64,000 nt of DNA, from positions 1,088,001-1,152,000 of the forward strand of contig CAVQYR010000001.1 in NCBI GenBank assembly GCA_963718235.1, read 5' to 3'. How positions within the stretch are numbered: the first letter of the stretch is position 1; the number at the start of each line of letters is the position of its first letter. Both the position numbers and the translations under genes were made by a program. Below are positions 6,754 through 40,465 of this stretch, one piece after another. Origin of the DNA: an uncultured Actinomycetota bacterium (GTDB lineage: Bacteria; Actinomycetota; Actinomycetes; JAHEKZ01). The notes beneath the pieces were generated by a model. That model saw only the letters and a program-made list of their open reading frames with translations. It made no database searches and had not been told where the DNA came from.

Positions 6754-7535
6754 GCAGTGGACCGAAGGCGCACGCTGATGACGCGGCAACCGACTCCGAA
6801 GCAATCGTGATCGCCGACGACGTCAGCCTGGCTTACGGACCGCAGACTGTCGTCCACAACGTGTCGTTGCGCGTAGGACGCGGAGACGCGGTCGGAGTTG
6901 CTGGCGAGAGCGGCTCTGGCAAGTCGACGCTGGCCAAGGCATTGGTCGGGGACCTGAAGCCCAGCTCCGGAACCGTCCGCGTCAACGGAAGAACTTGGTC
7001 GGAGATCGGTCGTAAGGATCCCGATCGTCGACGGGTACAGATGGTCTTCCAAGATCCTTATAGCGCCCTGAACCCGAGGATGACGGCGCGGCAAACAGTG
7101 GCCGAGGTCCTGCGGGTCCAACGACGTGTGCCTCGGTCGGAGGTTGTGGGCCGGGCTGGCGACCTGCTGTCTGACGTCGGCATGACGGGCAATGCGATGG
7201 ACGTACGTCCGCAACGGCTGAGTGGCGGAATGCGGCAACGTGTTGTCATCGCAAGGGCGGTTGCCTGTGAGCCGGACGTGTTGGTGGCAGACGAACCGAC
7301 CTCCGCTCTCGACGTCTCGATCCAGGCGCAGATCTTGAACTTACTGCTACGCCTGCGTACCGACCGGGGTCTTGCGCTTGTCCTCGTGACCCACGATCTC
7401 GCGGTGCTTAAGCACATGACGAACTACACGTTGGTAATGAAGGATGGGCACGTTGTGGAAGAGGGCTCGACTAGAGAGATCCTTGAGCAACCGACACACG
7501 AGTACACCCGGACTCTGGTCGCAGCTCGCCACTAG
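6750..7535 (+). CDS. ABC transporter ATP-binding protein (DppF/OppF-like)
   Basis: GESGSGKST, VFQDPYSALNPR, LSGGMRQR and DEPTSALD. Confidence 0.94.
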   Translation: MSSGPKAHADDAATDSEAIVIADDVSLAYGPQTVVHNVSLRVGRGDAVGVAGESGSGKSTLAKALVGDLKPSSGTVRVNGRTWSEIGRKDPDRRRVQMVFQDPYSALNPRMTARQTVAEVLRVQRRVPRSEVVGRAGDLLSDVGMTGNAMDVRPQRLSGGMRQRVVIARAVACEPDVLVADEPTSALDVSIQAQILNLLLRLRTDRGLALVLVTHDLAVLKHMTNYTLVMKDGHVVEEGSTREILEQPTHEYTRTLVAARH

Positions 7536-7589
7536 TGCCTAAGACGGCTCGGCGCTACTCCGGCACCGATGGGTTAGACACAGTGGCAC

Positions 7590-14600: not shown

Positions 14601-15020
14601 ATGCCAAAGGTATCGAGGGCCACCGCATCCTCTCACTTGGCCATTCCCGACTACGTGGACAACTGCGAGGAGGAGCTCGGTCGCTGGACCGTGAGCCTGG
14701 AAAGCAGCTTCACCGACATGGACCTCGCGCCCTTCTACAGGGGCGCACCGAATGATCAGTGCCAGGCATCGCACGTTGGCTACGTGCTCAAAGGGAAGTT
14801 CGGTGTCCGGAAGGCCGATGGGGAAGAGGAGATCTTCGAGGCCGGTGACGCGTTCGTCATCGAACCAGGGCACACTCCACTCATGTTCGCTGGATGCGAG
14901 TACGTCGCCTTCACCCCTACTGCTGAGTCGAAAGCGGTCGAAGCTGTGGTCATGCCGAACATGATGAAGTACGCGGAAGAGCAGGGGATCGAACTGCCGG
15001 CGCAGGTGGCGTCTGCGTAG
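14601..15020 (+). CDS. Cupin domain protein
   Basis: CQASHVGYVLKG and FEAGDAFVIEPGHTP; AGGAG RBS. Confidence 0.85.
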   Translation: MPKVSRATASSHLAIPDYVDNCEEELGRWTVSLESSFTDMDLAPFYRGAPNDQCQASHVGYVLKGKFGVRKADGEEEIFEAGDAFVIEPGHTPLMFAGCEYVAFTPTAESKAVEAVVMPNMMKYAEEQGIELPAQVASA

Positions 15021-15107
15021 TTCTTCGTCAGGCAGTCATGGCCTCACGTGCAGGGGGCTGGCATCTTCGGTAGTGGGGCCCCAAGCGGCATCGCGAACGG
15101 GTGCGGG

Positions 15108-16538
15108 TCAGTCGCGCAGGGCTTCAGCGAGTTCGCGGAAGTGGCCGACGAGTAGGTCCATGTCTTCGCGGGTGTGGGCCAGTGACACCAGCCACTGCTC
15201 GTCGAGACCGGGCGGAGTGAGAATGCCGCGGTTCACACCCCACAGCCAGCTGAGCTCAGCGGCACCGAAGTCGGTGCGCTTGTAGTCGCGGTAGTTGCGC
15301 ACCGGAGCCGTAGACCAGGTGACCGCACCCTTGACGCCGAATCCGACGGTGTGAGTTGGCAGCTCGTGCTCGTCGATGATCGCGTTCATCGCCTCGAGGG
15401 AGTCGACGTTGAGCTTCTCGGCAGCGGAGAGTGCTTCCGCTGTGGCGATCTGGTCGATGGCCACTGCTGCGGCCATGACGAGCGGGTTGCCGTTGTAGGT
15501 GCCGAAGTGCGGCATGCGATCGTCGCTCACACAGGCCATGACCTCGGCGCGCCCGCCGAAAGCTGCGAGCGGCAGACCGCCGCCGATGCTCTTGGCCAGA
15601 CAGATCAGGTCCGGCGTGACGCCAAGCCGCTGTGCGGCGCCGGCAGGCCCAGCCGTCAGGCCGGTCTTGACCTCGTCGAACACCAGAAGGGCCCCGTTCA
15701 CGTCGCACATCTCGCGCACGCCGGCGAGGTAGCCCTGGTCGGGGACAACGATTCCGATGTTCTCGAGCACCGGCTCCATGAAGACGCACGCGATCTCCGA
15801 GCCGTGTTCGGCGAACAGCTGCTCCAAGCGCGCGAGGTCGTTGTAGGGGACGACGTAGACCGTTCCGGCCTCGACCTCGAACGGCGTGACCGGTGTCGGT
15901 GCTGCCTCGGGGCCGGCCTCGGCGACCGCGGGCTTCACCGAGACCTGCAGGGCGTCGTAGCCGCCGTGGTAGCCACCTTCGATCTTGATGATCGCCTTGC
16001 GCCTGGTGAACGCTCGGGCGGTCCGCACCGCGTACATCGTCGCCTCGGTGCCGGAGTTGGTGAAACGCAGCTTGTCGAGGCCGAAGCGCCGCTGGAAGCG
16101 CTCGGCCGCCTCGGTCGCTGACGGGGACGGCGTCACGAACAGGGTCCCGGTCTCCAGGGCGCTACCGACCGCGGCGACGACCGTCGGGTTGAGGTGGCCC
16201 GCCAGCATGGCGCCAAAGCCCATCGAGAGGTCGAGCAGCCTGCGACCGTCGACGTCGGTGAGCCAGGCACCCTTGGCGCTGGTCACCGCTACGGGGTAGG
16301 GGTCCCAGTGCTGAAACGATGACGGGACGCCGAGGGGAAGCACGCCGAGGGCCCGAGCGTGGTGTGCACCGGAGCCGGGCGTCTGCGACTCGAACCGCTC
16401 CCACTCAGCGGCGAGCAGCGACGCCACGCGTGCCGGGTCGAGCGGGGTGGCGCCCCCGGGGACGACCCGGTAGGTGGCCGGGTCGTGCGCAGGCCAGGTC
16501 ACAGGAGTGGGGGCGGCGGTAGCCGGCTGCGTGCTCAT
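15108..16538 (-). CDS. Class III PLP aminotransferase (glutamate-1-semialdehyde aminomutase-like)
   Basis: NSGTEAT, GGYHG, FDEVKTG, PDLICLAKSIGGG and GTYNGNP. Confidence 0.9.
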   Translation of the reverse strand: MSTQPATAAPTPVTWPAHDPATYRVVPGGATPLDPARVASLLAAEWERFESQTPGSGAHHARALGVLPLGVPSSFQHWDPYPVAVTSAKGAWLTDVDGRRLLDLSMGFGAMLAGHLNPTVVAAVGSALETGTLFVTPSPSATEAAERFQRRFGLDKLRFTNSGTEATMYAVRTARAFTRRKAIIKIEGGYHGGYDALQVSVKPAVAEAGPEAAPTPVTPFEVEAGTVYVVPYNDLARLEQLFAEHGSEIACVFMEPVLENIGIVVPDQGYLAGVREMCDVNGALLVFDEVKTGLTAGPAGAAQRLGVTPDLICLAKSIGGGLPLAAFGGRAEVMACVSDDRMPHFGTYNGNPLVMAAAVAIDQIATAEALSAAEKLNVDSLEAMNAIIDEHELPTHTVGFGVKGAVTWSTAPVRNYRDYKRTDFGAAELSWLWGVNRGILTPPGLDEQWLVSLAHTREDMDLLVGHFRELAEALRD

Positions 16539-17869
16539 CTCGGCACTGTAGCGGCGCCATGAGGTCCTGGCGAGTGCGCTGCACCCTGCCCCATTGACTC
16601 CTGAGCCTGCCCGTCACGAATGCGGCGGACGGCACCTGCGAATTGCGACTCGAGCAGCACCGGATCGGCTTCACGTTCGACTTCGTCGAGCCGGTAGTCG
16701 GTCACCATCGGCTGTGCCACCCCTTCGGCGGCCAGCGCGCGCAGTCGCGCTGGTTCGCCGAGTCGACGCTGGCGATGGTCACGGTGCATCCGCTCGAAGT
16801 CCGCACGGTCAAGGGGCGTCAGCTCCAGGAACCCAGCCTCGACGGCAGCCGCCACGAGCTCGCTCCCAGCGGCGGTACGTTCGAGGATGACATTCACCCC
16901 AGGAGCTTCCTCATGCAGCGCGTGTCCGTCGCCATCGAGAAGCCAACCGTCGGGACAGACGACGTCGGCGAGCTCACCGATCGCATCAGGACAGATCTTG
17001 CAACGCCACTGCACGTCGTAGCGCCACGGCGCCTCACTGTCGAACCAGGTCTGGTCATAGCTGAGGTCGAACGAACGGCCGTCGGAGGCCTCGACGTGCG
17101 TCGGTCCGGGCCACCCCTCACCTCGCCATCGGAAGATCGCGACCTCCTGAGCCTCCAGCCCGTGGAAACCAGCGATCTTCTGTGCCGTCCCGGCGTTTGG
17201 TACTCCGCCGCAGAACAGGGTGAGCAAGTGCGGAACCTGGGTCTTCACCCGTGCATCGAATCGTGCCAGATTGCGGACCGCAGCGACGTCACACGGCTTG
17301 GCGATGACTGCGAAGGTCTTGCCTTCATCCAGTAGCCGTTGCACGTGGACCAATGGCGCAGACGGTCCATAGCGCGACTGAGCGCCCGCGACGACCTCGT
17401 TGCTCGTGGTTGAGACCTGTGCTGCGGTCAGCATCGGCTGGTCTGTTGACGCCCGCACGTGAAGTACGGCATCGACGCGTCCGCTCTCGAGCAGAAAGCA
17501 GCCGAGTGCGGTCAGGGCGCCGCCCGCCGCAGCGCGATGGCGGATCGCTGGATCGGCCGCCCACCCTCGCGAAAGCCCGCGCATAGGGCCCCAGATCAGG
17601 TCCACCGGAGTGCCTTCGCTGAGCGGCGCGGCTGCACTGCCATCCGCAGAGAACCCCGGGCAGACGGCCAACAACCGCTCGTTCTCCTCAGCGTGGAGGG
17701 CGTCACGGATGAGCGGACGCGTCTGTCCGCTCGGCGACAGACGCATCTCGATGCGATCGCGCCCGGCCAGGCTCTCGCAGATCCCACAACCGGCGCAGAG
17801 TCCGCCGCGAACGACATCTTCGAGGCTTTCGACCTTGCTCCTCGTCAATGTCAGCCACCGCCCGATCAC
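16535..17869 (-). CDS. Coenzyme F420 hydrogenase/dehydrogenase beta-subunit (FrhB/FdhB) family Fe-S flavoprotein
   Basis: CAGCGIC, VCPG, AAGGALT, SRY, KPCD, LFCGG and RCKICPD; start uncertain. Confidence 0.85.
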   Translation of the reverse strand: MIGRWLTLTRSKVESLEDVVRGGLCAGCGICESLAGRDRIEMRLSPSGQTRPLIRDALHAEENERLLAVCPGFSADGSAAAPLSEGTPVDLIWGPMRGLSRGWAADPAIRHRAAAGGALTALGCFLLESGRVDAVLHVRASTDQPMLTAAQVSTTSNEVVAGAQSRYGPSAPLVHVQRLLDEGKTFAVIAKPCDVAAVRNLARFDARVKTQVPHLLTLFCGGVPNAGTAQKIAGFHGLEAQEVAIFRWRGEGWPGPTHVEASDGRSFDLSYDQTWFDSEAPWRYDVQWRCKICPDAIGELADVVCPDGWLLDGDGHALHEEAPGVNVILERTAAGSELVAAAVEAGFLELTPLDRADFERMHRDHRQRRLGEPARLRALAAEGVAQPMVTDYRLDEVEREADPVLLESQFAGAVRRIRDGQAQESMGQGAAHSPGPHGAATVPR

Positions 17870-24136: not shown

Positions 24137-25396
24137 TTAGGAACGGTCGTTCGGCGGGTAGGCGAGGTAGCCACGCTGGGTGGCGATGTGGTCGGCCAGG
24201 TAGGCGGCGTCGTGCCAGACGCCCCAGATGAAGCTCGACCCGCGACGTGACAGCCACGGCAGCCCCAGGAAGTAGACGCCGGGCTCGGAGGAGACGCCAC
24301 GTCGGTGCCTCGGCCGGCCGTTCTCGTCGAAGGCGTCCACCTGCAACCAGCCGTAGTCGAGGGAGAAGCCAGTGGCCCAGACGATCGAGGTCACACCGGC
24401 CTGAGTCAGGTACAGCTCGCTCAGGGGATCGGTCACGCAGGCCGGCGTTGGTCCCAGGTCGTGGGCCTCCGGCTCCTCCGGGAGCTCGAGTCCGTTGCGC
24501 TCGACGAACCGGTCGGCCTCCTGGAGCAGGGACAGGTAGTTCTCATCACCTCGGGCGATGTTGTCAGCGAGGTCCGGTGCGAACCGCACCACGCCGGCTT
24601 CGTAGGAGTCCGTTCGGCCGACGAGCACCATGCCACGAGCAGCAAGGTCTCGGAAGTCGACGGTGTGACCACCGTGCGCTCCGCTGACCGCGATCGTGAC
24701 GTGCTCGGCGCCCTTCGGCGGCGTCTCGGCGTCCCACTTGCCCAGCACGCCGAGCCACCAGACGAAGTCGCGCCCGCGGTAGCGGCGCGGCGGGCGATCG
24801 TGCGGGCCCACCGACAGGTAGACGCGGCGCCCGGCGGCGAGCAGCTCGTCGGCGATCTGCACCCCCGACGATCCTGCGCCGACCACGAGCACGCCACCGT
24901 CGGGCAGCTGTCCCGGGTTGCGGTAAGCGGTGGAGTGCAGCTGCACCGGCCCGGCGTCGGCGGGGACCACGTCCGGGACGACCGGACGCTGGAACGGACC
25001 GGTAGCGGCGACCACGAACCGCGCGTCGACCGTCCCCTCCGACGTCTGAACGCGAAAGCCGGACCGTCCCTGGTTCCTCCGGACCGACGTGACCTCCACC
25101 CCGCACCGGATCGGCGCTGCGATCTTCTCGGCGTAGGCGACGAGGTAGTCCGCGACCTGCTCCTTGGTGGCGAAGGCGTCCGGGTCCAGGTCGGAGAACT
25201 CCAGCCCCGGAAAGCGGTCGTGCCAGACAGGTCCGTTAGCGACCAGGGAGTCCCATCGCTCGGAGCGCCAGCGCTCGGCGATGCGGTGCCGTTCGAGGAC
25301 CAGGTGTGAGACCCCGCACCGGCCCAGGTGCTCGCTCATCGCCAGGCCGGCCTGTCCACCTCCGACGACGAGCACCTCCACCGCTTCGGTCGACAT
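24137..25396 (-). CDS. Flavin-containing monooxygenase (candidate imidazoleacetate monooxygenase, HinF-like)
   Basis: VVGGGQAG, ERWDSL, LHSTAYRNP, VVGAGSSG, WATGF and SSFIWGVWHDA. The substrate is inferred from context. Confidence 0.85.
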   Translation of the reverse strand: MSTEAVEVLVVGGGQAGLAMSEHLGRCGVSHLVLERHRIAERWRSERWDSLVANGPVWHDRFPGLEFSDLDPDAFATKEQVADYLVAYAEKIAAPIRCGVEVTSVRRNQGRSGFRVQTSEGTVDARFVVAATGPFQRPVVPDVVPADAGPVQLHSTAYRNPGQLPDGGVLVVGAGSSGVQIADELLAAGRRVYLSVGPHDRPPRRYRGRDFVWWLGVLGKWDAETPPKGAEHVTIAVSGAHGGHTVDFRDLAARGMVLVGRTDSYEAGVVRFAPDLADNIARGDENYLSLLQEADRFVERNGLELPEEPEAHDLGPTPACVTDPLSELYLTQAGVTSIVWATGFSLDYGWLQVDAFDENGRPRHRRGVSSEPGVYFLGLPWLSRRGSSFIWGVWHDAAYLADHIATQRGYLAYPPNDRS

Positions 25397-25454
25397 CGCT
25401 ACCCCGCTCGTCGTGAAGGACCCTGGCCCGGGCTGCGGCTGCACGCCCGTGGGC

Positions 25455-25520
25455 ATCGTCGCGCCGTTGGCTGCTCCTGTCCAACAGATGTTCTAGGCCT
25501 CTTGCATCAATTGCCTCGAT
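25455..25520 (-). promoter_or_regulatory. Candidate LysR-activated promoter of the monooxygenase
   Basis: ATC-N9-GAT, 13 nt, AACATCTGTTGGAC, 18 nt, GACGAT; same layout as 32306-32371. Confidence 0.7.
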
Positions 25521-25597
25521 GCAACGACGCGCCCCCGGCCGGGATCAGGTCTCCAGCCCCGGCACGTGCTCGTTCTCGAACGCGACGTGCTGCCCAC

Positions 25598-26608
25598 TCA
25601 TCGTGGAGTCGCGTCGACCCAGCGCTGGACGCGCTCGACGGTGAACAAGTGGGTGAGGATGTCGTCGAGCCAGAAGACCTTCCGGTCCCGCTCCTCGGTC
25701 GCCAGCGTCTCGTCCAGGGCCTGGACGGCGTAGTGCTCGACGAGGTGCTGCTGGACGGCGAGCACCCCGGCGAACGAGCTCGGCTGCAGCCGGACGGGAG
25801 GGCCGCCGCCCAACTCGTACGCCGCGAGGAAGCCACGAACCTCCCGAAGGGGCACCTCGAACTCCGCAAGCGCACCTGCCAGCTCGCACTCGGCCACCGC
25901 CGGACCGCAGTTCTCCCAGTCCACGACCACGGCGCTACCGTCCGTCCCGAGCAGCACGTTCTGCGGGTTGAAGTCGCGGTGACAGGTCGTGCGTGGACCG
26001 GTGGGTCCCGCGAGCACCAGCTCGTTGGTCGCCGCCAGGTCCGCGACCCGCTGGGCCAGCAGGGCGGCCCACGGGGCCGCCGCGTGGGCAGCCGCCGAGG
26101 CGAGCTCGTCCCAACGTTCAGCGGGCACCGCCTGCGCGAACCAGGGGTCGATCGGCCGGTCGTCGGCGATCGCCAGAGCGTGCAGCCGCCCGAGCAGGTA
26201 CGCCGCCTGGTCGGGAGCAGCGCTGACCGGCCCTGGCAGGAGGTCGACCCAGGTGTGGACCCGCACCTGCCACGCACCAGAACCCGCACGCACGTCGGCG
26301 AGCAGGGCGCCGTCCGGTGTCCGGCGAGGCAGCGGTGTGTGGACGAGCGCGGCGGCTGCCGCACTCGCGAGGCTGGCGTCGACGCGCGCCTCCTCCTCAG
26401 TCCAGGGCTCCAGCAGCTCCTTGACGGCCCAAACGCCGGTGGAGGTCTTCAGGCGCCAGATCCGACCAAGCTCACCGCGCGCCGCGAAGGTCGCCGGTCC
26501 TTCCGGGTGTCCGAGAGCGAAAGCGTCCGCTATGGCGGCGGCGTCCGGCGGCGGAGCGGTGACGGGTACGGGAGGAGGCCCGATCGGGCGCCCGATTGAG
26601 TCGATCAC
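25598..26608 (-). CDS. Aminoglycoside phosphotransferase/kinase-like protein
   Basis: WAVK, CHRDFNPQNVL and VVDWE. Confidence 0.85.
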   Translation of the reverse strand: MIDSIGRPIGPPPVPVTAPPPDAAAIADAFALGHPEGPATFAARGELGRIWRLKTSTGVWAVKELLEPWTEEEARVDASLASAAAAALVHTPLPRRTPDGALLADVRAGSGAWQVRVHTWVDLLPGPVSAAPDQAAYLLGRLHALAIADDRPIDPWFAQAVPAERWDELASAAAHAAAPWAALLAQRVADLAATNELVLAGPTGPRTTCHRDFNPQNVLLGTDGSAVVVDWENCGPAVAECELAGALAEFEVPLREVRGFLAAYELGGGPPVRLQPSSFAGVLAVQQHLVEHYAVQALDETLATEERDRKVFWLDDILTHLFTVERVQRWVDATPR

Positions 26609-26648
26609 CGACTCATCATGGCGGCCCGAGGCGGCCTAGCGTGTGCCC

Positions 26649-27659
26649 ATGACGCAGGATCCGGTCGACGCGCTGCGACGCATCGCGTGCCTGCTCGAGC
26701 GCGAGCAGGCACAGACCTACCGGGTGAGGGCCTTCCGTACCGCAGCGTCGGTGGTGTCAGCACTGCCGCCGGCGGAGCTCGACGCGCGACTGCGGGCGGG
26801 CACCCTGGCCGACCTCAAGGGAGTCGGGCGGGTCACCGCCGAGGTGGTGGCGCAAGCCGCGTCGGGTGAGGTGCCGACGTACCTTGCCGAGCTCGAGGCC
26901 CACCCAGGACCGGACACGGGTTCGGCGCAGCCACTGCTGGATCAGCTGCGCGGCGATCTCCACGTGCACTCCAACTGGAGTGACGGGGGCAGTCCGATCG
27001 AGGAGATGGCCCGCACGGCCGCCGAGCTGGGGCACGCGTACATCGCGCTCACCGACCACTCGGCCCGGCTCACGGTTGCGAACGGTCTGACCCGCGAACG
27101 TCGTCTGCAGCAGCTCGACGTCGTCGCGTCGTTGAATGCCGAGCTGGCTCCCTTCCGGATCCTGACCGGGATCGAGGTGGACATCCTGGACGACGGCAGC
27201 CTCGACTGCGACGACGACGTCCTCGCTCGCCTCGACGTCGTCGTGGCTTCGGTGCACAGCAAGCTACGCATGCCGTCGACGCAGATGACACCGCGCCTGG
27301 TCGCGGCCGTCGCGAACCCGCACACCGACGTGCTCGGGCACTGCACCGGACGCATGGTGGTCGGCAAGGGGCGTCCGGAGTCGGAGTTCGAGGCCGAGCT
27401 GGTCTTCGAGGCCTGCCGGACGTTCGACGTCGCGGTCGAGGTCAACTCCCGCCCCGAACGACTCGACCCCCCGAGGCGGCTGCTGCGCCAGGCCGTCGAG
27501 CGGGGCTGCCGGTTCAGCATCGACACCGACGCGCACGCTCCCGGCCAGCTGGCGTGGCTGCCGTTCGGTGCCGAGCGAGCGGTTGAGTGCGGCGTGACCG
27601 CCGATTCGGTGGTCAACACCTGGGACGTCGACGACCTGCTCGCGTGGACCGCACGCTGA
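26649..27659 (+). CDS. PHP-domain protein with N-terminal PolX-like HhH domain
   Basis: YRVRAFRTAA, LKGVG, DLHVHSNWSDG, TDHS, GHCTGR and DTDAH. Confidence 0.9.
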   Translation: MTQDPVDALRRIACLLEREQAQTYRVRAFRTAASVVSALPPAELDARLRAGTLADLKGVGRVTAEVVAQAASGEVPTYLAELEAHPGPDTGSAQPLLDQLRGDLHVHSNWSDGGSPIEEMARTAAELGHAYIALTDHSARLTVANGLTRERRLQQLDVVASLNAELAPFRILTGIEVDILDDGSLDCDDDVLARLDVVVASVHSKLRMPSTQMTPRLVAAVANPHTDVLGHCTGRMVVGKGRPESEFEAELVFEACRTFDVAVEVNSRPERLDPPRRLLRQAVERGCRFSIDTDAHAPGQLAWLPFGAERAVECGVTADSVVNTWDVDDLLAWTAR

Positions 27660-27707
27660 ACACCGCCGAGCGTGCGTGCTCGCGCGCCGTGCTGCGTGGC
27701 ACTTGCG

Positions 27708-31182
<3,475 letters not shown>

Positions 31183-31285
31183 TGACGCCCTCCCGTCGGA
31201 GAGCCACAGCGTACGGCCATCGTCGCGCCGCTACCGGTCATCTGTAAGGTGCCGGCCCGCGGTGGGCCGACGCGAGGAACCGCCC

Positions 31286-32110
31286 TCAGCGGCGGACGAC
31301 CGCCTCGCAGTCGTGGAAGATGCGGTCAGCAGCATCGGCGTTGGCGTTGTCATGTCCGGTGCCGCACAGGATGAAGTCAGTACCGGCGTCGCCCCACAGC
31401 CGGTCCTCGCCGTCCGATCCGCCGACTCGGTCGTCCCCGTCGCCGCCGTGCATCCGGTCCCGGCCCTGCATGGCGACCAAGTCGTCGTTGCCGGTGCCGC
31501 CCCACACCACGTCGTTGCCGAGCCCTGCTCGGATCCAGTCGGCGCCGTCGTTGCCCCAGACGACGTCACGACCGGAATGGCCGTTGAAGAAGTCCGGCCC
31601 CGCCCCGAAGTGGGCGACGTCGTTGCCCTTGTCGCCCAACACGGTCACAGCGAACGTGGCAGGCAGGGTCGAGGTGTCGGTGAAGTCGTTGCCCAGCCTC
31701 GGCCAGATCTCAAGGAGCAGGGGTCGACGCACACTGATGTCTCCGGGAACCCGGCACACCGCGGCGATCCCTACCTTCACCTTCACCTTCTTGCACGCGG
31801 GCGACAGCCTCTTCCACGACCGGGTACCGGTGTCGACGAGGCGCAGCCCGCGGTCAACCAGGGTGACGACCAGGTGGCTGTTCTGCTGTCCGGTGCGGAA
31901 GCGATACCCGAGGTCGGTCTTGGCGAGCATCCCCTGGTCCTTCAGTGGGATGACCACGAACTGACCCATCAGCTCCGTCGTGTACTGGTACGGCGGGCCG
32001 GCGTGGGACCGAGTGGATGTCTCGCGACCGTCGGCGGTACCGGCCGCTAGCGAGGTCATGGTCGCTGCGACGACAAGCGTCGCAGCCGTGAGCGCGGTTC
32101 GTCGAAGCAC
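31286..32110 (-). CDS. Secreted calcium-binding protein with hemolysin-type (RTX) repeats
   Basis: Signal peptide and tandem GGxGxD-like nonapeptides (GGTGNDDLV, GGDGDDRVG). Confidence 0.85.
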   Translation of the reverse strand: MLRRTALTAATLVVAATMTSLAAGTADGRETSTRSHAGPPYQYTTELMGQFVVIPLKDQGMLAKTDLGYRFRTGQQNSHLVVTLVDRGLRLVDTGTRSWKRLSPACKKVKVKVGIAAVCRVPGDISVRRPLLLEIWPRLGNDFTDTSTLPATFAVTVLGDKGNDVAHFGAGPDFFNGHSGRDVVWGNDGADWIRAGLGNDVVWGGTGNDDLVAMQGRDRMHGGDGDDRVGGSDGEDRLWGDAGTDFILCGTGHDNANADAADRIFHDCEAVVRR

Positions 32111-32305
32111 AGTGACCCCCTCGCGTCGACCGTTTCGCTGCCGGTTGGCAGCGGTGGCCGAGAGTCCGACCCGATCGCCGTCGTAACCTAAAGTAAGCGT
32201 TCGCTCACCGAGCGTCACAGCATACACGAAAGAGCCGGAAAAACGGTAGTGGCGCCTCCGGCGGACGCCTCAGTCCCCGAAACCCGGTCAGCGAGCAGCA
32301 TCAAG

Positions 32306-32371
32306 ATCGATCATTCCGATTTTAATGTCCGATAACATCTGTTGGACTTCTGACCCAGCCGCACCCAGGAT
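32306..32371 (+). promoter_or_regulatory. Candidate LysR-activated promoter of the RidA to dehydrogenase operon
   Basis: ATC-N9-GAT (32306-32320), 13 nt, AACATCTGTTGGAC (32334-32347), 18 nt, CAGGAT. Confidence 0.7.
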
Positions 32372-32462
32372 CGGGCCTGACCGACCGCCCCGCTGACCGA
32401 CGAAGGATGCCTATGACCCGCACCGGCGAGGAGTCCAGCGCGCGCCTTCGTCACGGCCGCCG

Positions 32463-32885
32463 ATGAAGCACCGCCGCATCCGCCCGTTCAACACCCGCGA
32501 GACGTATCCCGAGCAGCGTCTCGACAACGACCTGTGTCAGGCCGTGGTGGCCGCGGGCACCGTCTACCTTCGCGGGCAGATCGGGCAGGATCTCGACACC
32601 CGTGAGTCGGTCGGGGTCGGTGACGTCGAGGCTCAGGCCGAGCGGGCCATGGCCAACGTCGCGTTGTTGCTCGACGAGTGTGGCTCCAGCCTGGAGGACG
32701 TCGTCAAGGTCGTCGTGTACCTCACCGACATCCGTTTCCGCGAGCCCGTCTACCGAGTGATGGGTCGCTGGCTCAAAGGGGTCTTCCCGGTCTCGACCGG
32801 TCTGGTCGTCAGTGCGTTGGCCCGCCCGGAGTGGCTGGTCGAGATCGACGTGACCGCGGTCGTGTCGGAGCCGGCCCAGTCGTGA
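32463..32885 (+). CDS. RidA/YjgF family enamine deaminase
   Basis: VYLRGQIG and PVSTGLVVSALARPEWLVEID; N-terminal RIRPFNTRETYPEQRLDNDLCQAV subfamily signature. Confidence 0.9.
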   Translation: MKHRRIRPFNTRETYPEQRLDNDLCQAVVAAGTVYLRGQIGQDLDTRESVGVGDVEAQAERAMANVALLLDECGSSLEDVVKVVVYLTDIRFREPVYRVMGRWLKGVFPVSTGLVVSALARPEWLVEIDVTAVVSEPAQS

Positions 32886-33574
32886 CGTTCAGCGTCGTCG
32901 GCCGCTGCGCCATCACCGGTGCGATGGGGGTGGCGATCTCGTCGTCGTCGCCCGCTGTGGCGGCCCGCTGCGCCTGGGTGCGCGGGGGAGCAGGTGCTGT
33001 CACCACGCAGAACGTGACCGACCCGCGACTTGGCCCCGCCCTGCTCGACGCGCTGGAGCGCGGTGAGGACGCAGAGACAGCAGTGGCCGGCGTCGTGGCC
33101 CGGCAACCGCAGGAGGTCGTCGCGTGGCGCCAGCTCACGGCCGTCGACCGTCACGGACGAACCGCGGCCTGGACGGGACGGCAGGCCCTCGGCTTGCATG
33201 CCGAGGTCGTGCGCAGCGGTGTGGTGGTCGCGGGCAACCTGCTCGCGTCCCCGGCCGTGCTCGACGCCGCGGCCGAAGCGTTCGACGCCGACCACACCCT
33301 TCCGCTGGGTGCCCGACTCATCGCCGGCCTGGCCGCTGCGCTGTCGGCCGGTGGCGAGGCCGGCCCGGTCCGCTCGGCGGGGATGCTGATCGCCGACGCC
33401 GACCCGACCTACACGTGGCCGACCACGGACCTGCGGGTCGACTGGCACGACCAGCCGGTCACCGAGCTCGCCCGGCTCTGGACGGTCTGGGAGCCCCAGG
33501 CAGCTGCCTACCTGACCCGAGCCGTGGCCCCGGGCACCTCGCCGAGCTATGGAGTGCCGGGGGACCAGAGGTGA
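32882..33574 (+). CDS. DUF1028 (Ntn-hydrolase-like) protein
   Basis: MTFSVVGR, SSSPAVAARC, AGNLL, GGEAG and DLRVDWHDQP. Confidence 0.88.
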   Translation: MTFSVVGRCAITGAMGVAISSSSPAVAARCAWVRGGAGAVTTQNVTDPRLGPALLDALERGEDAETAVAGVVARQPQEVVAWRQLTAVDRHGRTAAWTGRQALGLHAEVVRSGVVVAGNLLASPAVLDAAAEAFDADHTLPLGARLIAGLAAALSAGGEAGPVRSAGMLIADADPTYTWPTTDLRVDWHDQPVTELARLWTVWEPQAAAYLTRAVAPGTSPSYGVPGDQR

Positions 33575-34761
33575 GCGCTGGTCCGGGCCTGCGCGCGCAC
33601 ATCCGTTCGGACGTCGACCGTCGTCGCCCGCGGCTGCTGGACCTCAGCCACCGCATCCACGGGCACCCGGAGGTGGCGTGGGAGGAGGTGCGCGCCAGTG
33701 AGTGGGTCGGGCAGGCGATGGCTGAGGGCGGGTTCGAGGTGACACCCGGTGCCTATGGCCTGCCGACCGCCGTCGAGGCGGTGCGGGGGGCTGGCCCCCT
33801 GACGATCGTGCTCTGTGCCGAGTACGACGCCCTCCCGGGAGTGGGGCATGCATGCGGACACAACGTCATCGCGGCATCGTCGGTCGGAGCAGCACTGGCG
33901 TTGGGAACGGTCGCCGACGACCTCGGGCTGCGCGTGGTGCTGCTGGGAACGCCGGCTGAAGAAGGAGGAGGGGGCAAGATCGAGCTGCTCGCTCGCGGTG
34001 CGTTCGAGCACGCCCACCTGGCGCTGATGGCCCACCCCGGCCCGGTCGACGTTGCCCGAGCCGAGGCCTTCGCCGTCTCGCACGTCCAGGTCACCTACGA
34101 CGGGAAAGCTGCGCATGCGGCTGCCTATCCCGAGGCGGGCGTGAACGCCGCTGACGCGTTTACCGTGGCGCAGGTGGCACTGGGGCTGTTGCGTCAGCAG
34201 CTACCGGCTGACGCACGCGTGCACGGGGTCGTCACGCACGGTGGCGACGCCCCGAACATCATCCCCGCCCGCACGCAGGGTCGCTGGTACGTGCGCGGAG
34301 CGACGACGACACAGCTGATCGAGGTGGAACAGCGTGCCCGGAAGTGCTTCGAGGCGGGTGCCTTGGCGACGGGGTGCCGCTTGACCGTGACTCCGGAGAG
34401 CCCTTCCTATGCCGAGTTCACCAACGACACCGATGTGTTGGCGTACTACGTGGCCAACGCCCAGGAGCTCGGACGGACCTTCGCCGCCGTTGACGACCCG
34501 GCGGGCCGGATGAACCGGGCCAGCACCGACATGGGCAACGTGTCCCAGGTGGTGCCCGCGATCCACCCCTACATCGGGATCGACTCCCTTCCGGCGGTCA
34601 ACCATCAGCCGGAGTTCGCGCTGGCGGCCGGCTCCCCGGCGGCCGACGTAGCCGTCCTCGACGCAGCGACTGCCCTGGCCTGGACCGTGGCTGATGTCGC
34701 TGCTGATCCCCGACAACGTGAGCGACTGCTCCCCGGACCAGCAAGGGGCGACGATGCGTGA
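33571..34761 (+). CDS. M20-family amidohydrolase
   Basis: HGHPEVAWEE, EYDALPGVGHACGHN, GTPAEEGGGGK and STDMGNVS. Confidence 0.9.
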   Translation: MSAGPGLRAHIRSDVDRRRPRLLDLSHRIHGHPEVAWEEVRASEWVGQAMAEGGFEVTPGAYGLPTAVEAVRGAGPLTIVLCAEYDALPGVGHACGHNVIAASSVGAALALGTVADDLGLRVVLLGTPAEEGGGGKIELLARGAFEHAHLALMAHPGPVDVARAEAFAVSHVQVTYDGKAAHAAAYPEAGVNAADAFTVAQVALGLLRQQLPADARVHGVVTHGGDAPNIIPARTQGRWYVRGATTTQLIEVEQRARKCFEAGALATGCRLTVTPESPSYAEFTNDTDVLAYYVANAQELGRTFAAVDDPAGRMNRASTDMGNVSQVVPAIHPYIGIDSLPAVNHQPEFALAAGSPAADVAVLDAATALAWTVADVAADPRQRERLLPGPARGDDA

Positions 34762-36841
34762 GCCGCGCTACGACATCCTGTTCGAGCCCGTCCAGATGGG
34801 CCCGGTCACAGCACCGAACCGCTTCTTCCAGGTACCGCACTGCAACGGCATGGGCTACCGCGACGTCACCGCACTCGCCACGATGCGAGGCGTCAAGGCC
34901 GAAGGTGGGTGGGGAGTCGTCTGCACCGAGCAGGTGGAGCTCCACTACTCGTCGGACATCACACCGTTCATCGAGCTGCGCCTGTGGGACGACCAGGACA
35001 TCCCGGCGCTGGCGCGGATGGCCGAGCGCATCCATGAGCACGGTGCGCTCGCCGGACTCGAGCTCACCTACAACGGGATGAACGGTCCGAACCTCTACAG
35101 CCGTGAGGCACCGATGGGTCCGGCGCATCTGCCGGTGGCCACCTGGTCGCTGGACCCGGTCCAGGCCCGGGCCATGACCAAGCAGGACATCGTCGACCTG
35201 CGTCGCTGGCACAAAGCCGCGGTGGGTCGTGCGCTGCAGGCTGACTACGACATCGTGTACGTGTACGCCGGGCATGCGCTGGGCGGCATCCACCACTTCC
35301 TGAGCCCACGGTTCAACCAGCGCACCGACGAGTACGGCGGCAGCACCGTCAACCGGATGCGCCTGTTGCGCGAGATTCTCGAGGACACCCGTGAGGCGTG
35401 CGACGGTCGGGCAGCTGTGGCGTGCCGGATCACGATCGACGAGCTGCTCGGCGACGGTGGGATCGACCGGGCCGAGATCGAGCACGTGATCGGCGAGCTG
35501 TCCGAGCACCCCGACGTGTGGGACTTCGTCCTCGGCTCGTGGGAGGACGACTCGGTGACCTCCCGGTTCGGTCCCGAGGCCAGCCAGGAGGAGTACGTCA
35601 AAGGCCTGAAACAGCTGACGACCCGACCGGTGGTCGGCGTGGGTCGCTTCACCTCGCCCGACACGATGGTCCGCCAGGTGAAACAAGGGATCCTCGACCT
35701 GATCGGTGCTGCTCGCCCGTCGATCGCCGACCCCTTCCTTCCGCGCAAGATCGAGGAGGGTCGGCTCGAGGAGATCCGCGAGTGCATCGGCTGCAACATC
35801 TGCGTCTCCGGCGACTTCACCATGTCGCCGATCCGCTGCACGCAGAACCCGACGATGGGAGAGGAGTGGCGGCGCGGCTGGCACCCGGAGCGGATCCAGG
35901 TGCGAGGTTCGCAGTCGTCGGTGCTGGTGGTGGGGGCTGGCCCGTCCGGCCTGGAGGCAGCGCGCGCACTCGGGCACCGCGGCTACGACGTCACGCTCAC
36001 CGAGGCCACGCGACAGCTCGGTGGTCGGGTGTGGCGCGAGTCACGACTTCCGGGACTGGCCGCCTGGGTGCGGGTGCTCGACTACCGGGAGCGGCAGATC
36101 CGCTCGCTGAAGAACGTCGAGGTGGCGCTGGAGTCGGTCATGACGGCCGACGACGTCGTCGGCAGCGGGTTCGAGCACGTGGTGGTTGCGACCGGGGCGC
36201 GGTGGAGAAGCGACGGCGTCGGCCGGTGGCACCTGACTCCTGTTCCCGTCGAGGGGTCGGCGTCCGTGCTCACTCCCGACGACCTCATGTCCGGGTCCCG
36301 CCCGGCGGGTAGCCGGGTGGTCGTGTTCGACGACGACCACTACTACATGGGTGGCGTCCTCGCCGAGCTGTTGGCCGGCGAGGGCTACGAGGTGCACCTG
36401 GTGACCCCGGCGGCCCAGGTGTCGAGCTGGACCAACAACACCCTCGAGATCATCCGGATCCAGCAGCGGGTGCTGGGTGCCGGAGTTCACGTGCGCACCG
36501 CTCGGGTCCTGACCGCCGTCGCACCGGGAGAGGTCACGATCGCCTGCGCCTACACCGGCCGCGAGGAGGCGATGGCGGCCGACGCGGTGGTGATGGTCAC
36601 CGCCCGGCTGCCGCGCGAGGAGCTGCTGCACGAGCTGACGGCGCGCGGCACGGAGTGGGAGAGCGGCGGGCTACTGAGTGTGCGCGCGATCGGTGACGCG
36701 TTCGCCCCTGCCACCATCGCTGCTGCCGTCTACGAGGGCCACAAGTACGCCGAGGAGCTGGACGGACCGCCGCGCACGGGAGACGTCGTCCCGTTCCGCC
36801 GCGAGGTGACCGCCTTGGCGCCGCACGGAGACCCCGCATGA
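34754..36841 (+). CDS. Histamine dehydrogenase-like Fe-S flavoprotein (trimethylamine/histamine dehydrogenase family)
   Basis: QVPHCNGMGYRD (6-S-cysteinyl-FMN Cys), CTEQVE, CIGCNICVSGD..RCTQNP and FRREVT; closely matches the recalled Nocardioides simplex histamine dehydrogenase. Confidence 0.85.
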   Translation: MREPRYDILFEPVQMGPVTAPNRFFQVPHCNGMGYRDVTALATMRGVKAEGGWGVVCTEQVELHYSSDITPFIELRLWDDQDIPALARMAERIHEHGALAGLELTYNGMNGPNLYSREAPMGPAHLPVATWSLDPVQARAMTKQDIVDLRRWHKAAVGRALQADYDIVYVYAGHALGGIHHFLSPRFNQRTDEYGGSTVNRMRLLREILEDTREACDGRAAVACRITIDELLGDGGIDRAEIEHVIGELSEHPDVWDFVLGSWEDDSVTSRFGPEASQEEYVKGLKQLTTRPVVGVGRFTSPDTMVRQVKQGILDLIGAARPSIADPFLPRKIEEGRLEEIRECIGCNICVSGDFTMSPIRCTQNPTMGEEWRRGWHPERIQVRGSQSSVLVVGAGPSGLEAARALGHRGYDVTLTEATRQLGGRVWRESRLPGLAAWVRVLDYRERQIRSLKNVEVALESVMTADDVVGSGFEHVVVATGARWRSDGVGRWHLTPVPVEGSASVLTPDDLMSGSRPAGSRVVVFDDDHYYMGGVLAELLAGEGYEVHLVTPAAQVSSWTNNTLEIIRIQQRVLGAGVHVRTARVLTAVAPGEVTIACAYTGREEAMAADAVVMVTARLPREELLHELTARGTEWESGGLLSVRAIGDAFAPATIAAAVYEGHKYAEELDGPPRTGDVVPFRREVTALAPHGDPA

Positions 36842-36920
36842 CTGGAGCTGCCAGCCCAGCGTCACCGACCAGCGTCGATGGGGCGCCCTGTCGCCGAGCC
36901 TCTGCCCCGAGGAGAAGAAC

Positions 36921-38412
36921 ATGCCTGAGACCCGTACCCGTGACGACTGGCAGCGGCAGGCACACGGTCTGCCGTTGCGAGGTGCCGCCTACATCGACGG
37001 GGCGCCGGTCGAGGCGGTGTCTGGGGCGACCTTCGACAACTTCAGCCCGACCACGGGCGAGGTGCTCAACCAGGTGGCCTCGACGGACACGGCCGACGTG
37101 GATCGCGCCGTCGCGGCGGCGCGGGCAGCCTTCGTCCGTGGCGACTGGGCGCACAGCTCACCAGGCGAGCGCAAGGAGGTGCTGCTGCGACTGGCCCAGC
37201 TGATCCGTGACAACGCGGACGAGCTGGCCCTGCTCGAGTGCCTGGACATGGGTAAGCCGATCACCGACGCACTGACTGGTGATGTTCCGGGGGCGGCCGC
37301 GGTATGGCAGTGGCACGCCGAGGCGATCGACAAGGTCTACGACGAGGTGGCTCCCACGGGTCGGGGCGACTTGGCGCTGGTGCGCCGCGAGCCGCTCGGC
37401 GTCGTGGCGGCAGTCGTGCCGTGGAACTTCCCCCTGGACATGGCTGCCTGGAAGTGCGCACCTGCGCTCGCCACCGGGAACTCGGTCATCCTCAAGCCCG
37501 CGGAGCAGTCGCCGCTGTCGGCGCTGCGACTGGCCGAGCTGGCCACGGAGGCCGGCGTGCCCGATGGTGTCCTGAACGTCCTTCCGGGCTTCGGCGAGAC
37601 GGCCGGCGCAGGCACTCGGGCGCCACTTGGACGTCGACTGCCTGGCGTTCACCGGGTCGACCGAGGTCGGCAAGTACTTCTTGAGGTACTCGGCGGAGTC
37701 CAACGCCAAGCAGGTCTGGCTCGAGCTCGGTGGCAAAAGCCCGAACCTGGTGTTCGCCGACGCCGGCCCGTTGGAGGAGGTCGCCGCCAAGGCGGCGTTC
37801 GGCATCTTCTTCAACCAGGGGGAGGTCTGCTCGGCCAACTCCCGCCTGCTCGTGGACCGCACGGTCAAGGACGAGCTGCTCGAGCTGCTGGTCGAGCAGG
37901 CCGCGTCGATGGCCCCAGGTCACCCGCTCGACCCGCAGACCGCGATGGGTGCGCTGGTGACCAGGGAGCACACCGACCAGGTCATGCGCTTCGTGGAGTC
38001 CGGGCGCGCGTCAGCCCGACTGGTCACCGGCGGGGAGAGGCTGACCCTGTCGAGCGACTGCTACGTCACTCCCACCATCTTTGACGACGTGACGCCCGAC
38101 CACGAGATCGGGCGCGACGAGATCTTCGGCCCCGTGCTGTCGGTGATGTCGTTCGACGACGATGCCGAGGCGGTCGCCGTCGCCAACGACAGCCGCTTCG
38201 GACTGGCGGCCTCGGTGTGGACCTCAGACCTGTCGCGAGCGCTGCGGGTGTCCGAGCAGCTGCACGTCGGAACCGTCTCGGTCAACACCGTCGACGCCCT
38301 GAGCCCGATGACCCCGTTCGGCGGGTTCAAGCAGTCGGGCATGGGCCGTGACCTGTCTCTGCACTCGTTCGACAAGTACACGGGCCTGAAGACGACCTGG
38401 ATCAGGTACTGA
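36921..38412 (+). CDS. NAD-dependent aldehyde dehydrogenase (PuuC-like); +1 frameshift near 37605
   Basis: PWNFP, KPAEQS, FTGSTEVG, LELGGKSP, NQGEVC, EIFGP and PFGGFKQSG spread over two frames. Confidence 0.9.
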
Positions 38413-38439
38413 CATGAACGACCTCGACGCGGGGCGCAT

Positions 38440-39399
38440 GTGACCGCCGGCGCTGACCGTGGTTCGGGCACCGCCCGCTACACCCTGCGCCAGCTGGAGT
38501 ACTTCGTCGCAGTCGCCGAGTCCGGAACGGTCACTGCCGCCGCCGACCGGGTCCACCTGTCGCAGTCCGCGATGTCGACCGCGCTGGCCGATCTGGAACG
38601 GGCGCTCGGGGTGCAGCTGCTCGTGCGCCATCATGCCCGCGGCGTCACGCTGACACCGGCCGGTGAGGAGCTGCTGATCCGTGCGCGCGAGCTGCTACGC
38701 CAGGCCGAGGACCTCGACAGTGCGGCACACGCCCTGGGCGAGGCTCTGGTCGGTCGCGTGCGCCTCGGCTGCTTCTCCATCTTGTCGCCGTACCTGCTGC
38801 CGCCGCTGCTGGCGGCCGTCGACGAGCGGCTGCCCGGCCTCGAGGTCGAGCCGGTCGAGGAGTCACTCGACGGGCTGGGGGCCGGTCTGCGCGAAGGACG
38901 GTTCGAGCTGGCCCTGACGTACGACCTGGGCCTCGGTACCGGTTTCGAGTGCGAGCCGTTGCTGGAGGTCCGACCGCACGCTCTGCTGCCCGCCGACCAT
39001 CGGTTCGCCGCCCAGCCCTCGGTACGCCTCGAGGAGCTGGCGGACGAACCCTTCGTCCTGCTCGACCTTCCGCACAGCCGCGACTACTTCACGGCCGCCT
39101 TCGGCGCCGCCGGAGTCACGCCCCGGATCCGGTACCGCACCCGTAGCGCGGAGACGGCCCGGGCCCTGGTCGCGCGGGGCCTCGGCTGGAGCCTGCTCAA
39201 CCTGCGGCCGGCCACCGACGAGTCCGTTGAAGGACGGCCGGTGGTCGCCCGTCCCCTCTCCGACCCAGTTCCCGCGCTCACCGTCGTGCTCGCGCTTGCG
39301 GTCGGCTCCCGGCCGACCCGACGTGCGCAGGCACTGGCCGATCTGGCGCGGGAGGTGCTGACGCCACCGATGCTGCAGGCCGACGGCGACCAGCGGTAG
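38440..39399 (+). CDS. LysR-family transcriptional regulator
   Basis: TLRQLEYFVAVAESGTVTAAA..HLSQSAMS..LGVQLLVR. Confidence 0.95.
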   Translation: MTAGADRGSGTARYTLRQLEYFVAVAESGTVTAAADRVHLSQSAMSTALADLERALGVQLLVRHHARGVTLTPAGEELLIRARELLRQAEDLDSAAHALGEALVGRVRLGCFSILSPYLLPPLLAAVDERLPGLEVEPVEESLDGLGAGLREGRFELALTYDLGLGTGFECEPLLEVRPHALLPADHRFAAQPSVRLEELADEPFVLLDLPHSRDYFTAAFGAAGVTPRIRYRTRSAETARALVARGLGWSLLNLRPATDESVEGRPVVARPLSDPVPALTVVLALAVGSRPTRRAQALADLAREVLTPPMLQADGDQR

Positions 39400-39439: not shown

Positions 39440-40465
39440 TCAGGGTGCCGCGGGCTGGTGCTGGGTGATGCAGTGCACGCCTCCGCCGTTGCGGAAGATC
39501 GGACGAGCGTCGACCATCACGATCCGGCGGGAGGGGAACAGGCCCTGGATCTGGTCGCGTGCCCGCGCATCGGACTCGGCGTCGCCGAAGGAGCACATCA
39601 CGATGCCGTCGTTCACGAACGAGAAGTTGATGTAGCTGTGGTCGATGGCGACGCCGTCCTCGATGGTGGTCTCGGGAGCGTCGATGGTGATGAGCTCGAG
39701 CGCGCGGCCTCTGGCGTCGGTGGCCTCCCGAAGCCGTGCCACGTTCTCCTCCATCACCGCATGGTCGTAGTGCTTGGGGTCGGGCTGCCCATGGACGACG
39801 ACCACTCCCGGTCGCACGAAGGCCGCGAGCACGTCGACGTGCCCGTTGGTCCCGATGCCTGGCCGGAACTCCTGCATGTCTCCCATCAGGCCGCGTACCA
39901 GCCAGATGACCTTGGTCACCCCGATCGTTCGCTCCAGCTCGGCCTCGACGTCAGCCTTCGACCAGCCGGGGTTCCGCCCGTCGTGCAGCTGCACCGTCTC
40001 GGTCACGAGGACGGTGCCTTCGCCGTCGACGTGGATCCCCCCACCCTCGTTCACCAGTGGGCTTGACACGAGTCTGGTGCCGGCGACCTCCGCAACGAAG
40101 GAGGCAACCTGGGCGTCGAGATCGGAGGCAACCAGGTTGGAGCCCCACCCGTTGAAGACCCAGTCGACCGCGTGGGGGACGCCCGCGTCGTCGAACACGA
40201 ACGTCGGTCCGTTGTCCCGCAGCCAGCCGTCGTTGAGCTCCGCATTGAGCAGGGTGACGCGTGGGTCGAGAAGGCTGCGCGCCTGTGCCAGGGAGTCCGG
40301 CGTCGCGAGCACCGTGACGGGCTCGAACTCGGCCACTGCGTTCGCGACGCTAGCCCATGCCGGCGCCACGTCATCCCCACTGCCCTGCACCGGGCCGCCG
40401 ATGGGTGGCCAGGACATCCAGGTGCGCAGATGAGGGACCCACTCGGCGGGCATGCGGTAGGTCAT
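39440..40465 (-). CDS. aguA: Agmatine deiminase family protein
   Basis: MPAEW, WLRDNGP, FNGWG, EGGGIHVDG, GHVD, SYIN and GGGVHCITQHQP. Confidence 0.9.
   Translation of the reverse strand: MTYRMPAEWVPHLRTWMSWPPIGGPVQGSGDDVAPAWASVANAVAEFEPVTVLATPDSLAQARSLLDPRVTLLNAELNDGWLRDNGPTFVFDDAGVPHAVDWVFNGWGSNLVASDLDAQVASFVAEVAGTRLVSSPLVNEGGGIHVDGEGTVLVTETVQLHDGRNPGWSKADVEAELERTIGVTKVIWLVRGLMGDMQEFRPGIGTNGHVDVLAAFVRPGVVVVHGQPDPKHYDHAVMEENVARLREATDARGRALELITIDAPETTIEDGVAIDHSYINFSFVNDGIVMCSFGDAESDARARDQIQGLFPSRRIVMVDARPIFRNGGGVHCITQHQPAAP

Follow-up and report, generated by a model that had tools for sequence, protein, structure and literature searches.

A histamine dehydrogenase gene within a hin-like gene set of an uncultured Actinomycetota bacterium: a candidate route from histamine to aspartate

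The closest described systems for histamine catabolism are the hin genes of Pseudomonas, where hinFLHG (PA5393-PA5390) encode an FAD monooxygenase (EC 1.14.13.5), an enamine deaminase and two amidases, the last one assigned to EC 3.5.1.8; hinI encodes an aspartate ammonia-lyase, hinD an aldehyde dehydrogenase (ALDH), and hinK a LysR-type regulator that responds to imidazole-4-acetate (PMC8231116, PMC6467879). According to a 2021 review, the hin genes had been judged to be absent from Gram-positive bacteria (PMC8231116), and in 2019 a hin-like pathway with a copper histamine (amine) oxidase as the entry enzyme had been proposed for cheese-rind Brevibacterium, an actinobacterium (Anast et al., PMC6467879). 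In this work we analyzed a stretch of 64,000 nucleotides (nt), referred to as the window, from an uncultured Actinomycetota bacterium (GCA_963718235.1, contig CAVQYR010000001.1; positions are given in window numbering), which carries a histamine dehydrogenase (HADH) gene together with genes for a flavin-containing monooxygenase, RidA, a DUF1028 protein, an M20 amidohydrolase, an ALDH and a LysR-type regulator. Genes were called from the open reading frame (ORF) listing, the GC content at third codon positions, and profile searches with Pfam and NCBIfam.

We consider it very likely that these genes form a histamine-growth regulon of two transcription units, in which histamine would be converted to aspartate with HADH at the entry, under the control of a HinK-like LysR regulator. 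The catalytic steps, the inducer and the choice of hydrolase for each reaction are all modelled on the Pseudomonas pathway. HADH would oxidatively deaminate histamine to imidazole acetaldehyde, with transfer of the electrons to an acceptor; ALDH would then yield imidazole-4-acetate, and the flavin monooxygenase would hydroxylate the imidazole ring with NAD(P)H and O2; finally, RidA, DUF1028 and M20 would take the unstable product, via formimino- and formyl-aspartate, to aspartate. The inducer is probably imidazole-4-acetate, by analogy with HinK. A sequence-only reading of the window had proposed this hybrid route with oxidative entry, and it is supported by the grouping of HADH, the order of the module in related loci, the contiguity of the whole set in the locus of the closest relative, and the operator shared by the two units. 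The gene family identities, the HADH assignment, the linkage across genomes and the shared operator were directly observed.

By every sequence test available, the dehydrogenase of the window is a HADH. It aligns end to end with the enzyme of Nocardioides simplex (structure 3K30, chain residues 10-690 of 690) with a score of 1037 bits, followed by the HADH from Rhizobium (6DE6, 909 bits), a further relative (6L6J, 678 bits) and trimethylamine dehydrogenase (TMADH, 524 bits); it groups, thus, with the characterised HADHs and not with TMADH, and the close likeness to the N. simplex enzyme claimed in the initial reading was borne out. The three-domain architecture is complete, including the OYE-like_second_a-b domain of Pfam in addition to Oxidored_FMN and Pyr_redox_2. 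For N. simplex HADH, histamine has been proposed to be bound by Gln65, Ile74, Phe77, Glu79, Asn115, Tyr181, Trp267 and Asp358 (PMC10180351). All of these residues except Tyr181 (seven of eight, N. simplex numbering) are identical in the window enzyme. A Cys is also present at the position aligned with Cys35 of N. simplex, which we take to be the residue that links the 6-S-cysteinyl FMN. The cofactor has been described, in an account that names only Cys30 of the Rhizobium enzyme, as a contact residue (PMC10180351).

All seven genes named in the initial reading, that is, the six-gene row and the monooxygenase gene at 24.1-25.4 kb, were located with Pfam profiles (Table 1), and the coding frames of the cluster genes show third-position GC values of 0.81-0.94. 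The row RidA-DUF1028-M20-HADH-ALDH-LysR (32463-39399, + strand) fits a single operon, given that the genes are co-directional, the likely starts of DUF1028, M20 and HADH overlap the upstream stop codons by 4, 4 and 8 nt, and the two remaining gaps are short (79 nt between HADH and ALDH, and 27 nt between ALDH and LysR). The monooxygenase gene lies on the opposite strand, separated from the operon by approximately 7 kb of unrelated genes.

The two units are connected by their upstream regions. The window holds two exact copies of the 14-mer AACATCTGTTGGAC and no more, one upstream of the monooxygenase gene and the other upstream of RidA, and each copy is located 13 nt downstream of an ATC-N9-GAT box. 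The window contains three other matches to the 14-mer with up to three mismatches, each of them with three. The ATC-N9-GAT box by itself is found 10 times in the window (6.8 expected), whereas the composite of box, 13 nt and 14-mer is found twice versus 0.00 expected from 100 shuffles. This composite is also present upstream of the first cluster gene in three of 83 loci, namely L001 (described below), L039 (Leekyejoonella) and L083 (Streptomyces). ATC-N9-GAT is a LysR-type box of the T-N11-A form, the kind recognised by HinK (PMC10912698). The end of the 14-mer was read by eye as a −35-like TTGGAC, with a −10-like hexamer 18 nt further on. A search for repeats between 23.5 and 33 kb detected only the 19-nt inverted-repeat pair of the operators (I17); the 7 kb between the two units are not bordered by long repeats, either direct or inverted. 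Regarding the regulator, its closest solved relative over the full length is 6M5F (232 bits; the next full-length family, OxyR, reaches 102), a structure listed as HinK of P. aeruginosa (PMC11495319). This best match suggests that the LysR protein is HinK-like, and it is the predicted regulator of both units. These observations support a putative LysR operator common to the two transcription units, which ties the monooxygenase to the operon.

The monooxygenase is also tied to the set by its relatives. It is 78-79% identical to its counterparts in L001 and L002 (79% to the L001 gene, located immediately upstream of RidA), and 72-79% identical to the genes that head monooxygenase-RidA-DUF1028-M20(-aspartase) operons in L081-L084. 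The family is highly conserved, with 77-100% identity for the 120 clusters listed in the homologue search; no Pseudomonas appeared among these 120 matches, and those carrying an organism name were mostly actinobacterial. When plasmids were searched by tblastn, 740 records were obtained, 226 of them at 60-80% identity, with no Pseudomonas among the matches listed. A homologue is carried by Klebsiella plasmids in 105 records, such as K. pneumoniae pKP02022 (L087, 7001-8251). The best NCBIfam model for the window protein is TIGR04046, with 374 bits under a cut-off of 498. An in-frame ATG at 25456 would give a 419-residue form, a less likely start since the homologues align from residue 20. Because the gene is contiguous with the cluster in L001 and the operator is common to both units, the membership of the distant monooxygenase in the histamine gene set is supported.

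Compared with the in-cluster genes of related loci, RidA is 61-87% identical, DUF1028 45-73%, and M20 60-81% (L001, L039, L082 and L083). The sole solved relative of DUF1028 is a hypothetical protein (2IMH, 62 bits). M20 matches TIGR01891 with 181 bits, above the cut-off of 154, and among solved structures it comes closest to Xaa-Arg dipeptidase and HmrA (215-231 bits); by analogy it is a candidate for the conversion of formylaspartate to aspartate, as a functional counterpart of HinG. From the sequence relationships, this final hydrolysis seems to be served by different M20 lineages. The identities between the window and the module of Burkholderia are 73% for the monooxygenase, 63% for RidA and 52% for DUF1028; for the same three proteins, values of 60-63%, 61-65% and 48-50% were reported between Brevibacterium and P. 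putida (PMC6467879).

The neighbourhood of HADH was surveyed in species-representative genomes, which contain at least 609 relatives, of which 80 loci with 52-87% identity were examined; linkage was scored by tblastn with the window proteins (E ≤ 1e-10) inside the retrieved flanks. Many of these loci are short contig ends, so that absences are weak evidence. In this survey, already recommended with the initial reading, RidA and/or DUF1028 were detected near HADH in 7 of the 80 loci (L001, L002, L029, L032, L039, L044 and L049), the monooxygenase in two (L001 and L002), and the window type of M20 also in two (L001 and L039). In L001, a metagenome-assembled genome of Actinomycetes whose HADH is 87% identical, the genes monooxygenase-RidA-DUF1028-M20-HADH-cupin-ALDH-LysR are contiguous on one strand. 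Synteny between L001 and the window is confined to the cluster genes and stops at the cluster borders, with the monooxygenase segment inverted in the window. After seven loci with alignments shorter than 600 residues were dropped, 73 loci could be inspected for the binding residues. The set Gln65/Ile74/Phe-or-Tyr77/Glu79/Asn115 is present in the window and in 10 of the 73; all seven linked loci carry it, and none of the 63 loci that lack it is linked. In a FastTree phylogeny rooted at the midpoint (74 tips), the residue-bearing sequences, and thus all linked loci, fall in one clade of 19 tips (support 0.94) that also includes eight tips that have lost the set.

The module was further compared in seven annotated records chosen by hand and not at random. 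In Burkholderia multivorans (L081) the order is monooxygenase-RidA-DUF1028-ArgE-type M20, followed by LysR and a cytosine permease; in Streptomyces sp. SAT1 (L083) it is monooxygenase-RidA-DUF1028-M20-aspartase-MFS-LysR; and the plasmid of Arthrobacter sp. ERGS1:01 (L082) carries ALDH, a primary-amine oxidase, TetR, LysR and monooxygenase-RidA-DUF1028-M20-aspartate ammonia-lyase. In Ideonella dechloratans (L084) the four-gene module is separated by an 8.5-kb restriction/toxin-antitoxin insert from cupin-HADH (66.5% identical)-ALDH-LysR, and in Leisingera caerulea (L086) the order is monooxygenase-RidA-DUF1028-ALDH-LysR-HADH-like (57%)-dodecin-ArgE-type M20, adjoining an aspartase gene, so that aspartase is linked in L082, L083 and L086. 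Roseateles sp. XES5 has monooxygenase-LysR-ALDH-HADH-like, with RidA and DUF1028 not in view. The HADH-like proteins of Ideonella, Leisingera and Roseateles have the same five residues. In the K. pneumoniae plasmid, a more distant monooxygenase homologue has genes for an ABC transporter and an alpha-hydroxy-acid oxidase as neighbours, and none of the other module genes. Since the module occurs in Arthrobacter and Streptomyces and also beside HADH in Ideonella and Leisingera, the hybrid arrangement of HADH with hin-like genes is real and widespread, and it is not only actinobacterial. The actinobacterial scope given to it initially is too narrow, in view of Ideonella, Leisingera and Roseateles.

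Individual steps differ among the linked loci. In two proteobacterial loci, an HpaB-type two-component oxygenase replaces the flavin monooxygenase beside RidA (L044, 14574-16064; L049, 6614-8836), and L049 also has a flavin reductase. The actinobacterial L002 carries an AXE1-type esterase gene after DUF1028, and, besides HADH, a copper amine oxidase and an APH-aminotransferase fusion (5199-7589 and 14982-16883), that is, up to three possible amine entry enzymes. A small Cupin_3 gene directly follows HADH in L001 (12085-12480), L029 (12105-12485), L049 (12079-12450) and L084 (16354-16731), and a dodecin gene does so in Leisingera (L086, 16289-16495); the window has neither after HADH. An alternative layout is found in the actinobacterial L028 and L032, with an amino-acid permease, HADH, (ALDH), a cytochrome P450, a second permease and a tetratricopeptide-repeat regulator; L032 also has a DUF1028 gene at the end of its contig.

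Several observations weigh against a histamine regulon and have to be set beside this evidence. The window HADH has Leu in place of Tyr181, as do most linked loci, with Phe at this position in Rhizobium; HADH and the monooxygenase both stay below the cut-offs of all curated NCBIfam models; and three of the ten residue-bearing loci have no hin-like genes in the flank (L028, L033, and L003, which has little downstream flank). The counterparts of HinF, HinL, HinH and HinG are candidates, identified by published names, EC numbers, gene order and conservation pattern, and the window M20 has no similarity (E ≤ 1e-5) to the ArgE-type M20 of Burkholderia, Ideonella and Leisingera. A profile scan of the window ORFs found no transporter or aspartase gene in the cluster, nor a linked aspartate ammonia-lyase (HinI). 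The cluster could degrade another amine or heterocycle, such as agmatine or putrescine, or another acid of the imidazole or azole type, histamine being only a side substrate. In favour of this, agmatine and putrescine are further substrates of N. simplex HADH (PMC10180351), the cluster has an agmatine deiminase gene as its immediate neighbour, the HADH family of 80 loci is diverse at the substrate-contact positions, and the downstream enzymes have been assayed in Pseudomonas only. However, the window HADH keeps the histamine-contact residues, L001 and the other linked loci examined have no agmatine deiminase gene, the downstream module is found together with aspartase and with entry enzymes of the histamine type, and the LysR protein resembles the imidazoleacetate-responsive HinK, so that we regard a different substrate as improbable. 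The operator pattern was derived from the very sequences in which it is reported, so that it is the exactness of the 14-mer, the equal spacing and the location of the elements that carry weight; a scan for consensus promoters detected no sigma-70-like site upstream of either unit. Homologues of the monooxygenase also exist in unrelated contexts, those of Klebsiella plasmids being 62.7% identical to the Burkholderia monooxygenase. Its inverted position 7 kb away, with unrelated genes in between, the Leekyejoonella operon with no monooxygenase in its flank, and the HpaB-type oxygenase next to RidA in two proteobacterial loci could mean that it is an unrelated neighbour and that the ring-opening oxygenase is encoded elsewhere. 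Against this, a 78-79% identical gene adjoins the cluster in both L001 and L002, and the composite of box, 13-nt spacing and identical 14-mer precedes both units and occurs nowhere else in the window; we find an unrelated neighbour hardly credible.

A different concern is whether a correctly identified cluster is functional in this genome. The ALDH gene is read in two frames, from 36921 to approximately 37607 (Aldedh profile positions 7-198) and from 37627 to 38412 (positions 205-460), and comparison with the intact orthologue of L039 indicates a single additional base at about 37605-37609 and no missing residues. The ALDH copy of L001 is likewise disrupted, at another position. ALDH could then be a pseudogene, in a pathway that is decaying or that relies on an unlinked ALDH; such a loss could be tolerable, given that P. 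putida has HinE as a second ALDH that backs up HinD (PMC6467879). Nevertheless, both halves are strongly conserved (226 and 295 Pfam bits, with a third-position GC of 0.94 in the second half), there are no further stops or indels, the protein is 52-69% identical to the in-cluster ALDHs of related loci, and the remaining cluster genes are all intact. An unrelated gene is also frameshifted at about 30.7 kb, its cyclase domain passing from ORF 30499-31182 into the frame of 27708-30770, which suggests assembly indel errors. The two frameshifts among some 55 genes of the window may be either such errors or real decay, and we consider a non-functional cluster unlikely, though clearly less so than either a different substrate or an unrelated monooxygenase.

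With a functional histamine regulon as the preferred interpretation, a broader one can be tentatively advanced, which we hold to be possible and somewhat doubtful: the HADH-entry cluster would be a histamine regulon in its own right, wide in distribution and reshuffled horizontally, with a conserved LysR operator of its own in Actinomycetota and with Gln65/Ile74/Phe-Tyr77/Glu79/Asn115 as the mark of true HADHs. Individual steps would have been replaced by unrelated enzymes (the HpaB-type oxygenase, and two M20 subfamilies or the AXE1-type esterase), and the cupin and dodecin proteins could perhaps take part in electron transfer or product handling. If so, the residue set would pick true HADHs out of a much larger amine dehydrogenase family.

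HADH has been studied mainly as a biosensor enzyme. We found no published account of its genetic context, including the gene neighbourhood in N. simplex, and no literature linking HADH to hin, RidA, DUF1028 or imidazoleacetate genes, in a search of main texts, so that an earlier mention is possible. The chemistry and the enzymes have long been known and only the gene arrangement appears to be undescribed; the advance is, therefore, incremental. The locus and its relatives connect HADH to a full candidate route to aspartate, providing a genetic basis for Gram-positive histamine catabolism, and they offer three items open to testing: a putative operator, its predicted regulator, and a set of residues by which true HADHs might be recognised. 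Possible uses are the choice of histamine-degrading strains for fermented food and enzyme mining for histamine assays.

The features of the region are listed in Table 1. The RTX-repeat gene between the two units is divergent from the operon, and models of RTX toxins and proteases matched it far below their cut-offs. The agmatine deiminase gene converges on LysR; a consensus terminator scan of this junction found nothing. This neighbour is notable given the agmatine oxidation by N. simplex HADH, and it was rejected as a member of the system since it is not conserved at related loci, L001 included. The GC content rises from about 0.62-0.66 (1-24000) to about 0.68-0.73 (24000-64000), a step that coincides with the 3' end of the monooxygenase gene. 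On the lower-GC side lie a DAO/GCV_T fusion (11813-14272), a class-III aminotransferase (15108-16538), FrhB-like, NrfD-like and ferredoxin genes, and a two-component system.

Table 1. Genes and upstream elements of the histamine gene set and of its surroundings in the window
Feature	Position	Strand	Evidence or remark
Flavin-containing monooxygenase, candidate imidazoleacetate monooxygenase (HinF-like)	24137-25396	-	Pfam Pyr_redox_3, 95 bits
Putative operator/promoter element upstream of monooxygenase	25479-25520	-	ATC-N9-GAT box 25506-25520, 13 nt, 14-mer 25479-25492
APH-type kinase	25598-26608	-	Between monooxygenase and operon
PHP/PolX-like protein	26643-27659	+	Between monooxygenase and operon
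Zinc-ribbon/adenylate-cyclase/AAA16 signalling protein, frameshifted	27708-31182	-	Between monooxygenase and operon
RTX-repeat protein	31286-32227	-	Between monooxygenase and operon
Putative operator/promoter element upstream of RidA	32306-32347	+	ATC-N9-GAT box 32306-32320, 13 nt, 14-mer 32334-32347
RidA, HinL-like imine/enamine deaminase	32463-32885	+	Pfam Ribonuc_L-PSP, 77 bits
DUF1028, HinH-like candidate amidase	32882-33574	+	Pfam DUF1028, 207 bits; ORF 32678-33574
M20 amidohydrolase	33571-34761	+	Pfam Peptidase_M20 and M20_dimer; ORF 33124-34761
Histamine dehydrogenase (HADH)	34754-36841	+	Pfam Oxidored_FMN and Pyr_redox_2; ORF 34694-36841
Aldehyde dehydrogenase (HinD-like), +1 frameshift	36921-38412	+	Pfam Aldedh, two half-matches in different frames
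LysR-type regulator, HinK-like	38440-39399	+	Pfam LysR; closest solved structure 6M5F
Agmatine deiminase	39440-40465	-	Pfam PAD_porph, 354 bits; NCBIfam models below cut-offs

The hin systems of Pseudomonas putida U and P. aeruginosa follow the same downstream logic, with an ALDH, an FAD monooxygenase, a deaminase of the RidA type, two hydrolases and a LysR regulator that responds to imidazoleacetate, and the order monooxygenase-RidA-DUF1028-M20 of the related loci (L001 and L081-L084) is that of hinF-L-H-G. In the window only RidA, DUF1028 and M20 are adjacent and the monooxygenase is displaced and inverted, whereas hinFLHG are four adjacent genes. The mirroring of the Pseudomonas set claimed at first thus stands for the gene families and for their order in related loci, and is less certain for M20, which is TIGR01891/HmrA-like, unlike the ArgE-type enzyme of the proteobacterial modules. 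In addition, the window set occupies a single locus, its regulator is the final gene of the operon, the cluster holds neither a permease nor an aspartase gene, and HADH takes the place of the aminotransferase HinC (hinDAC) at the entry. With N. simplex HADH the window enzyme shares the flavin-linking Cys, the Cys-rich iron-sulfur segment and all but one of the proposed binding residues, the difference being Leu for Tyr181; in contrast, TMADH (2TMD/1DJN) belongs to the same three-domain fold family with half the score, and the contact residues of the window enzyme follow HADH. Oxidative entry is shared with the putative system of Brevibacterium and with the Arthrobacter sp. ERGS1:01 plasmid, which combine it with hin-like modules (monooxygenase, RidA, DUF1028, aspartase and ALDH); the window proteins are 47-80% identical to their Arthrobacter counterparts. 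In those bacteria the entry enzyme is a copper primary-amine or histamine oxidase that produces H2O2, whereas in the window it is a dehydrogenase, and L002 carries both.

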